This document shows, in pieces, positions 16 through 4,427 of a stretch of DNA of 24,694 nt (position 1 is the first letter of the stretch; every line of letters begins with the position of its first letter). The notes under the pieces were generated by a model. It did not search any database, was not told where the DNA came from, and saw nothing but the letters and a program-made list of their open reading frames with translations. The stretch is from a virus (lineage: Duplodnaviria; Caudoviricetes): positions 1 through 24,694 of the IMG/VR virus record IMGVR_UViG_3300007541_000205; one strand, 5' to 3'. Position numbers and translations under genes: made by a program.

Positions 16-24
16 TGGTATGAT
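16..24 (+). promoter_or_regulatory. Extended -10 element (TGgTATGAT) of a sigma70-like early promoter; the -35 falls largely outside the window
   Basis: TG-n-TATGAT at 16-24, identical to the extended -10 of the clear promoter at 2499-2527. The predicted TSS near 31 is followed by a hairpin and an ATG at 50. Confidence 0.65.
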
Positions 25-287: not shown

Positions 288-293
288 TAGAAT
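288..293 (+). promoter_or_regulatory. Putative -10 box (TAGAAT) for the 317..523 gene
   Basis: TAGAAT ends 23 nt before the ATG, with the same -10 / leader hairpin / ATG layout as the first gene. No good -35 is visible. Confidence 0.45.
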
Positions 294-523: not shown

Positions 524-564
524 TCTTCAAATCTCGACTAGTATACACAAGCACATTCAAAACA

Positions 565-726
565 ATGAACAACCAACAACAAATCAATTCAATCGGTTTC
601 ACAATTACTTATCAGACGCCATACAATAATTGTGAATGGCGCACACAATCATTCACCACAAAAGAAGAGGCAGAAAGAATGATTTCATTCTATCAGTCTT
701 GTGGTTCTCCTGCGAGGTTTGTGTAA
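565..726 (+). CDS. Small hypothetical cyanophage-type protein, 53 aa (MNNQQQINSIGFTITYQTPYNNCEWRTQSFTTKEEAERMISFYQSCGSPARFV)
   Basis: Translated by hand (below the track cutoff), ATG 565 to TAA 724-726. It has a beta-beta-helix-like F.T.EEA..M pattern, and its stop overlaps the next start (TAATG). Confidence 0.75.
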   Translation: MNNQQQINSIGFTITYQTPYNNCEWRTQSFTTKEEAERMISFYQSCGSPARFV

Positions 727-833
727 TGGGACGCTGGATTCACAAGGGTGGCAAATCCCGCCCTGATAAAAGATTTAAGAACATCCTAACACCAAAGAAA
801 GGAGCAGCAAAGAATAAAAGAAAGAAGAAATAA
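726..833 (+). CDS. Very basic 35-aa peptide (MGRWIHKGGKSRPDKRFKNILTPKKGAAKNKRKKK)
   Basis: 3' part of track ORF 636..833. The ATG at 726 is translationally coupled to the upstream stop via TAATG. Confidence 0.55.
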   Translation: MGRWIHKGGKSRPDKRFKNILTPKKGAAKNKRKKK

Positions 834-839
834 TTCTTT

Positions 840-980
840 ATTCTTTATACTTACCACTGAGTATAAAGAATTACTCAGGGTTGAATGTAAACTATCGGTC
901 AGTGGTGTGGTTTATTCTTTACATTCAGTCCTGTCTAATTCTTTATACTTAGCACTGTTTGAGTTCTTCATACTAACTGC
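840..980 (+). ncRNA. Candidate structured non-coding RNA or repeat element (alternative hairpins, complementary loops)
   Basis: Hairpin A is 840-851/860-871 (12 bp perfect). Hairpin B is 857-891/918-952 (30 WC, 3 G-U, 2 mismatches). The direct repeat 840-859 vs 938-957 is 19/20 identical. No credible ORF overlaps it. Confidence 0.5.
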
Positions 981-4025: not shown

Positions 4026-4427
4026 ATGTCCATTAAAAGGGTATCGAGATCATTTAAGGATATTAGTTTATCATTTGAACCACATCCAGTCACTAAAGAC
4101 TTACCTATTCTTAAAAATGAGCGGGCAATCATTCGATCTGTTCGAAATATTGTAGAAACTATACCTTCTGAGCGATTTTTTAACTTAGATTTTGGAAGTG
4201 ATGCAAGATCTTCACTATTTTCAATCATTGACTATGGAACAATCGCAGTTATTGAAGATCAAATCATAAGATCAATCAACAATTATGAACCAAGAGTCGA
4301 AAATGTAAGAGTTAATGTGAATTCTACTTATGATGATAACACTGTTGAAGTAGAAGTAATCTTTGATATTATTGGACAGGACTTTCCAACACAAGAGTTT
4401 ACATTTATTCTAGAGGCAACGAGATAA
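4026..4427 (+). CDS. gp25: Baseplate wedge subunit / sheath initiator gp25 (GPW/gp25 family)
   Basis: FKDISLSF.PHPVT.DL, AI.RSV.NIV.T...ER.F...FGS and YEPRV motifs; 133 aa; directly precedes gp6. Confidence 0.95.
   Translation: MSIKRVSRSFKDISLSFEPHPVTKDLPILKNERAIIRSVRNIVETIPSERFFNLDFGSDARSSLFSIIDYGTIAVIEDQIIRSINNYEPRVENVRVNVNSTYDDNTVEVEVIFDIIGQDFPTQEFTFILEATR

Follow-up and report, generated by a model that had tools for sequence, protein, structure and literature searches.

A conserved RNA-like hairpin of T4-like cyanophage contigs carries a loop complementary to putative early leaders

The window, i.e. the whole stretch of 24,694 nt that we analysed, is by its sequence a contig of a T4-like phage of cyanobacteria from lake or fresh water. 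From position 4026 onwards it carries baseplate-type open reading frames (ORFs) in synteny with S-SRM01 and S-SCSM1, while its first 2 kb are part of a GC-rich island of small genes. This island extends over ∼10 kb in four long relatives and in S-SRM01, where its GC skew is near zero and no genome-wide skew switch was found at it. It is composed of units of promoter, leader, small gene and stem-loop, an architecture that the PeSL regions described for RB49 and phi1 resemble (PMC2839356). The host-type -10 boxes and the analogy with PeSL regions suggest that the island genes are early genes. Features of the locus are compiled in Table 1. The promoter near 288-293 probably starts the transcript that reads into the hairpin described below, whose targets would then likely include the leader of this same transcript. 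G/C hairpins between island genes (1509-1545 and 1880-1915 in the window, and also in relatives) have TAnAnT hexamers 4-6 nt upstream, and may thus be 5′ stem-loops of new transcripts in addition to terminators. In one relative, G001, the island starts (∼55100-55350) with five to six 22-bp direct repeats that adjoin an AT-rich tract.

Table 1. Features at the left end of the window (positions are those of the window).
Feature	Position	Strand	Remark
Putative early promoter, -10 box	19-24	+	Predicted
Leader with CACACCACTGA	35-45, before ATG 50	+	Predicted target
Putative early promoter, -10 box	288-293	+	Predicted
Leader with ACCACTGAC	307-315, before ATG 317	+	Predicted target
Palindromic box of the TCTCGAC/GTCGAGA type, 5′ of the 53-aa ORF	532-541	.	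Possible operator
53-aa ORF, function not assigned	565-726	+	Hairpin lies 3′ of the ORF; conserved linkage
35-aa very basic peptide ORF	726-833	+	Optional; by motif in 14/57 gene-anchored hairpin loci
Hairpin A0	810-852 (834-852 pairs with 810-829)	+	P about 0.9 in the full-length fold
Hairpin A	840-871	+	Real inverted repeat; transient intermediate, not conserved
Hairpin B	857-952	+	35-bp stem, 857-891/918-952
2 × 2 pyrimidine internal loop of hairpin B	874-875/934-935	+	From the fold
Inner hairpin	876-933	+	Common to both stem families; non-Watson-Crick pairs are G-U on the + strand
Loop core GTCAGTGGTGTGGTT	898-912	+	Reverse complement of the early-leader consensus
GTGGTGTGGTT	902-912	+	Retained even where GTCAG is broken (two variants)
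ATTCTTTATACT-type repeat units and right boundary of the AT-rich block	938-979	+	Long tandem arrays in relatives

The hairpin that is the subject of this work (hairpin B) follows a gene for a 53-aa protein at 59 of 67 loci, and a simple pattern search for a GC-rich stem plus U-run found no terminator-like site between the two (0/41 loci). The protein has 69 unnamed homologues and a weak SPOR-like lead (score below 0.9); it gave no tblastn match in cultured phages and no Pfam match above cut-off. The basic peptide is conserved in S-SCSM1 and S-T4, where its ORF is unannotated and lies near gp25 instead, and in the window the 3′ end of its ORF supplies the left arm of hairpin A0. At least one TCTCGAC-type box precedes the 53-aa gene at all 40 hairpin loci with enough sequence, compared with one of six loci that lack the hairpin. 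More generally, certain island genes are preceded by clustered TCTCGACGAGA/TCTAGTCGAGA palindromes that CA-rich spacers separate (window 532-541, the islands of L096 and L118, L509:6570-6850, S-SRM01 and S-T4); these boxes may serve a second class of promoters as operators, or form the arms of RNA hairpins with CA-rich loops. In S-SRM01 an HNH gene replaces the cassette, and the leaders are kept. A leftward promoter-like module, TTGACG (window 1022-990, minus strand; site at 1022-1017), accompanies 14 of 67 elements, and in S-SRM01 it faces the HNH gene. Contigs from one RNA run spanned a relative's 53-aa and 130-aa genes and left out 727-1124, a contig gap that by itself proves nothing.

Hairpin B has a long stem and an open loop of 26 nt that is G/U-rich and poor in C, with a computed opening cost of ∼4 kcal/mol. 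The 16 bp at 876-891/918-933 that the initial annotation had assigned to the upper stem are present and include two G-U pairs. Folding of 840-952 gave z = -7.7, and none of 200 shuffles was as good; the minus strand likewise folds well (z -6.7). Provided that the 3′ end of the RNA lies at or beyond 952, the lower stem of B had a probability of 1.0 and hairpin A of 0.0 at both 37 and 20°C, with every 5′ end tried. In the full-length fold the left arm of A is taken up by A0, a partner that had been missed before. The flanks are repetitive: 840-859 and 938-957 are direct repeats with 95% identity, up to 9-10 copies of the motif ATTCTTTATACT lie in either orientation, irregularly spaced at 24, 27 or 34 nt, and the arms of B contain -10-like TAnAnT hexamers. 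To the right of hairpin B, relatives carry hypervariable tandem arrays built from several unrelated units (L449, L446, L450, L454), some of which fold with G-U pairs; extra TCAGTGGTGT copies lie in the arrays of L448, L449, L453 and L487. Inverted repeats of ∼15 nt link the end of the 53-aa ORF (708-726) to the boundary of the AT-rich block (964-979), so that the RNA 3′ end could pair back over the stop codon of this gene. They are common in relatives (L465, L449, L014) and imperfect in several.

Pattern and protein searches recovered at least 108 distinct homologue contexts; among the matches listed, 105 of the 116 with enough flank were hairpins. One stem-pattern search samples only variants other than the commonest stem variant, and its chance matches, which lacked the AT-rich motif, were excluded by eye. 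Covariation supports the stem: in 41 family-1 homologues, 97.6% of cells were paired (35-43% in slid registers), 8 of 29 stem pairs were altered on both sides, and 62 cells were doubly changed compared with 13.8 in shuffles. These homologues are related, so that the cell counts are inflated and do not number independent events, and the number of changed pairs alone did not exceed the shuffles (140/500). A second stem family, to which 26 of the 108 homologues belong, replaces much of the stem, has no inverted lower arm and retains the loop. Within the inner helix, plus-strand non-Watson-Crick pairs were G-T in eight distinct contexts and A-C in none, a bias equally compatible with single-stranded DNA and RNA; the outer helix was strand-neutral (nine G-T, seven A-C).

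The loop is nearly invariant. At the 67 loci that were anchored on the 53-aa gene and had room for the element, 57 carried the exact core, two carried variants keeping GTGGTGTGGTT, and eight had none. The core was also kept in loci picked by their outer arms or by their stem (with one G>A variant), and hence its conservation is not an artefact of searching for the loop. A covariance model placed a single copy in the window and a single copy in each of G001-G004, and gave none for the whole S-SRM01 record or for 26 kb of S-T4, a phage in which most early starts have no leader motif. G008, an 82% complete relative with the 53-aa gene, has no hairpin either; its absence from S-SRM01 and G008 indicates that the element is dispensable in this group. 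blastn against cultured phages returned no hairpin match, and Rfam none at gathering score and none near the element at E ≤ 5. Among the matches listed, one comes from a bacterial genome, a family-2 hairpin on L508, a 7.9-kb contig of a Bacteroidetes MAG that is probably a misbinned phage fragment.

What does this loop match? The initial annotation had called it an anti-leader, a description that the comparison with leaders bears out well. On the strand that carries the loop, CACACCACTGA-like words lie between a -10 box and the ATG, and the commonest 7- and 8-mers before the island ATGs of five long contigs fall within the complement of the loop and are nearly absent outside the island. With island limits drawn from GC content and S-SRM01 among the contigs, pairing at -15 kcal/mol or better was predicted for 60 of 137 island starts compared with 117 of 1209 starts elsewhere; 300 shuffled loops reached a mean of 18 and a maximum of 45 on the island starts. 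The 11-nt core GUGGUGUGGUU ranked first of 462 words of the same composition as antisense: perfect matches of at least 8 nt were present in 121 of 388 promoter-proximal leader candidates chosen by pattern, the median word matching three. For the 15-mer, 131 leaders matched at ≥ 9 nt (2000 shuffles: mean 2.2, maximum 130). Matches mostly end 1-5 nt before the AUG, and only 11 of the 388 leaders contain a Shine-Dalgarno (SD)-like word. Opening costs included, the net pairing energies of three early leaders in the window were -15.7 (leader 19-52), -12.0 and -10.5 kcal/mol (leader 288-319). The island leaders before ATG 565 and ATG 1170 pair poorly (-3.2 and -5.2 net), and three late genes of the window gave -0.3 to -5.6 net.

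The loops showed no preference for the leaders of their own contig. Leaders were better fitted by their own loop than by foreign loops in 94 of 213 cases, with a mean difference of +0.14 kcal/mol in the wrong direction (Wilcoxon p 0.078). Variation in the leaders had no bias to wobble-compatible changes: C>T was rare, and the T of CACTGA was C or A in 68 of 158. About 167 of 339 leader candidates pair weakly, and 171 reach -18 kcal/mol. An invariant seed aimed at a consensus common to relatives would give this pattern, be its effect on the phage's own genes or on those of a competitor, and so would a protein ligand. Because S-SRM01 keeps its leaders without the cassette, the leader motif serves a purpose independent of the hairpin, which is an accessory.

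On balance, and with confidence a little above even, we read hairpin B as a 3′-UTR-borne RNA that would pair with the starts of early mRNAs and damp their translation. The stem covariation, the near-invariant loop core, the same-strand leader match just before the AUG, and the tight linkage between hairpin and 53-aa gene all support this reading. The hairpin would be transcribed from the plus strand as the 3′ tail of the 53-aa operon, within a cassette that comprises the boxes, the 53-aa gene, the optional basic peptide and the hairpin itself. Its long stem would protect the 3′ end, stabilize the RNA and keep the loop accessible, and RNase E or RNase III may cut the AU-rich flanks or the stem to yield a free RNA of ∼100 nt. 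The open 26-nt loop could then capture 8-13 nt of a ∼20-nt leader, the free 5′ end of which would thread the loop, and would pair over enhancer and start codon of many early messages. Since the leaders lack an SD sequence, their CA-rich motif is probably a translation enhancer, and covering it would block initiation. Accumulating in the early phase, the RNA would bring that phase to an end by negative feedback, and the early mRNAs of a co-infecting relative would be equally affected. As a tentative extension, which strikes us as possible rather than probable, a lytic phage would end its own early phase and block co-infecting relatives through one RNA loop on a swappable cassette. The loop would in that case be tuned to the consensus of the whole SD-less leader class, and the cassette would bring along operator boxes of its own and a small partner protein.

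We consider it unlikely that the hairpin instead serves as a structured 3′ end or protein ligand, in which case it would stabilize or process the 3′ end of the operon while a protein reads the loop; as a variant, a minus-strand RNA would display the loop as a decoy for a leader-binding factor. The leader match would then mean that the loop derives from an inverted leader, or that loop and leaders have a ligand in common, rather than that the two RNAs pair. Consistent with this, the leaders show neither cognate covariation nor a wobble signature, and the hairpin closes its operon, all 41 loci examined being free of further terminator-like sites upstream of it. The good fold of the minus strand and the leftward TTGACG site downstream also fit, but this site is absent from 53 of 67 elements, and the inner-stem bias (G-T 8 versus A-C 0) favours the plus strand. 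Moreover, a relic whose stem was being replaced would not have held on to the word that ranks first of 462 as antisense.

Still less probable is a function at the DNA level, i.e. a cruciform or single-strand hairpin with outward AT-rich boxes that would act as a replication or priming site or as a protein-binding array. Such an element could be single copy, as hairpin B is, and could account for ATTCTTTATACT in both orientations and high copy number, for the hypervariable arrays that adjoin the hairpin, and for strand-neutral outer arms holding TAnAnT hexamers. However, there is no GC-skew switch at the hairpin in five long contigs, and the element is missing from S-SRM01 and G008; a skew switch and presence in all relatives, the marks of an iteron-type origin, are thus not found for hairpin B. 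Repeats are present, although their irregular spacing may speak against it, and the leader match is left unexplained. By its sequence, the more iteron-like 22-bp array of G001, ∼7 kb upstream of the hairpin, is a better candidate for a replication origin.

The initial annotation had proposed a bistable fold acting as a timer: hairpin A and a kiss between its loop and that of B (state 1) would mask the anti-leader loop until refolding to full B (state 2) or processing. The pairings exist. The 12-mer at 840-851 recurs at 938-949, and segment 860-871 can pair without mismatch with either copy; the stretch 852-859 matches 900-907 through seven Watson-Crick pairs and one G-U (duplex -10.4 kcal/mol). 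Hairpin A would also form first in transcription. It was predicted with P 0.97 when the 3′ end lay at 875, and with P 0.0-0.97, set by the 5′ end, when it lay at 935 (equilibrium series), which makes it plausible as a brief co-transcriptional intermediate. It would be short-lived because the incoming arm 938-949 is identical to the arm displaced, and conversion of A to B by a 12-bp branch migration between identical arms, beside a toehold, should be fast. The alternative between A and B arises because one AT-rich 12-mer is reused in several hairpins and tandem arrays.

Bistability did not emerge from the calculations, which gave a single dominant fold. State 1 lay 7.8-11 kcal/mol above state 2, and with a kiss of 6-8 bp it lay 2.2-13.6 kcal/mol above, depending on the assumed pseudoknot penalty; the kiss-inclusive values are our own estimate and not the output of a pseudoknot folder. 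Nor is the 8-nt loop of A freely displayed, because A on its own extends its stem to 14 bp and leaves a loop of 4 nt; A0 moreover competes for the left arm, and the loop sequence of A is one base off the downstream repeat unit 950-957. The pairings are not conserved among the 108 distinct homologues: 33 are able to form A, and 12 the kiss, taken as a spacer-loop duplex at or below -8 kcal/mol; 11 of these 12 belong to the lineage with the basic-peptide gene upstream. The left arm of A is absent from 49 of the 108. In a smaller set, A was possible in 22 of 52 and the kiss in 8 of 52; upstream pairing of at least 10 bp was present in the minimum free energy (MFE) fold of 44 of 52, and in most homologues the upstream hairpin uses the same motif. 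For the timer it can be said that the MFE fold keeps A in L018, L050 and L072, that the arms of A in L018 and L072 share a change absent from lower B, and that 10 of 33 A-capable elements have an identical TTACCACTGA spacer. All in all, we find the timer very improbable; judged from these sequences it is a lineage-specific possibility at best.

Least credible is that the hairpin has no function and arose when slippage and template switching acted on an AT-rich spacer. The flanking arrays and perfect outer inverted repeats resemble such products, but this origin accounts neither for an invariant loop in changing stems nor for the G-U bias and rank 1/462.

Several narrower assignments were rejected. 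The apparent GC-skew flip of the window, which might indicate an origin, is the GC-rich island with its skew near zero. A promoter spanning the loop (-35 and -10 boxes TTGTCA-18-TACATT in the commonest variant) has a spacer of 18-20 nt, and its TT is not kept; TATACT at 846-851 cannot generally be the RNA's own -10 box, as 49 of 108 homologues lack that arm; and a minus-strand copy of the early promoter has a mismatched spacing between -10 box and motif. RpaB HLR1 sites, T-box or tRNA-primer pairing and primase sites were considered and dropped, since the other parts that they need appear to be lacking.

Collectively, the sequence comparisons identify hairpin B as a real, conserved and hitherto uncatalogued RNA-like element, whereas the two-state kissing switch is not conserved. 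T4 shuts off its early genes by means of proteins, RegA and RegB. If the shut-off reading is true, hairpin B would be the RNA counterpart of that control, and lytic phages would use multi-target antisense control of their own genes; it would also offer a portable repressor for any leader-tagged message in cyanobacteria. The literature that we found contains no account of early-gene shut-off in T4-like cyanophages, nor of ribosome recruitment by SD-less early leaders. Hairpin B names an 11-nt seed, a target class and a carrier cassette, through which both become testable.

Our literature search, which took in few subscription papers, found no description of hairpin B, and an earlier mention is possible. 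Known ncRNAs of T4-like cyanophages include CfrI, a cis-antisense RNA at psbA, together with wcaG, manA, glnA, abiF and PhotoRC-II (PMC9964418, PMC12197685), and the cyanophage RNAs listed in the S-CREM1 paper and a review of phage sRNAs are other than hairpin B; the hairpin matches none of the Rfam families of these named ncRNAs. The closest relatives of its genomic setting are the PeSLs of T4-type phages, described as multi-copy linkers of promoter plus terminator with G/C-run stems (PMC2839356). As in the PeSL regions described there, small genes follow one another in the island with promoter and stem-loop linkers repeated between them, and the gene content is shuffled; unlike PeSLs, hairpin B is single copy per contig, AT-rich, and has a long conserved loop. 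The terms 'cyanophage' and 'antisense' do not occur in the PeSL paper (PMC2839356).

Among sRNAs of the host side, ApcZ of Synechocystis arises from an operon 3′ end and is reported to inhibit translation in trans (PMC8136909). Hairpin B shares the cyanobacterial setting and the position at an operon 3′ end with no terminator in between (0/41 loci), whereas ApcZ, in the account cited, has one known host target and a sequence unrelated to hairpin B. Enterobacterial GcvB, a multi-target sRNA, is described as silencing ACA-type translation enhancers by pairing (PMC3879156). In a similar manner, the G/U-rich seed of hairpin B fits C/A-rich elements in many 5′ leaders (121/388). GcvB, according to that description, regulates amino-acid genes of the host from sites upstream of the SD sequence, whereas hairpin B faces SD-less phage leaders, presents its seed in the loop of a 35-bp stem and has no match to the GcvB sequence family.

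The nearest phage precedent is c4, an antisense RNA of P1 and P7 whose loop carries a complement of the ribosome-binding region in an mRNA of the same phage, and which has been linked to exclusion of co-infecting phage (PMC12197685). Hairpin B has no Rfam match to the c4/CI family model. Going by sequence and predicted energy, it resembles c4, as portrayed in that source, in having a loop complementary in trans to the translation-start region of its own phage's mRNA. The context differs, hairpin B lying in a T4-like early island next to baseplate genes and being directed at many small ORFs: where c4 of a temperate phage is reported to control one antirepressor message, the single long hairpin of a T4-like phage would address many early leaders.
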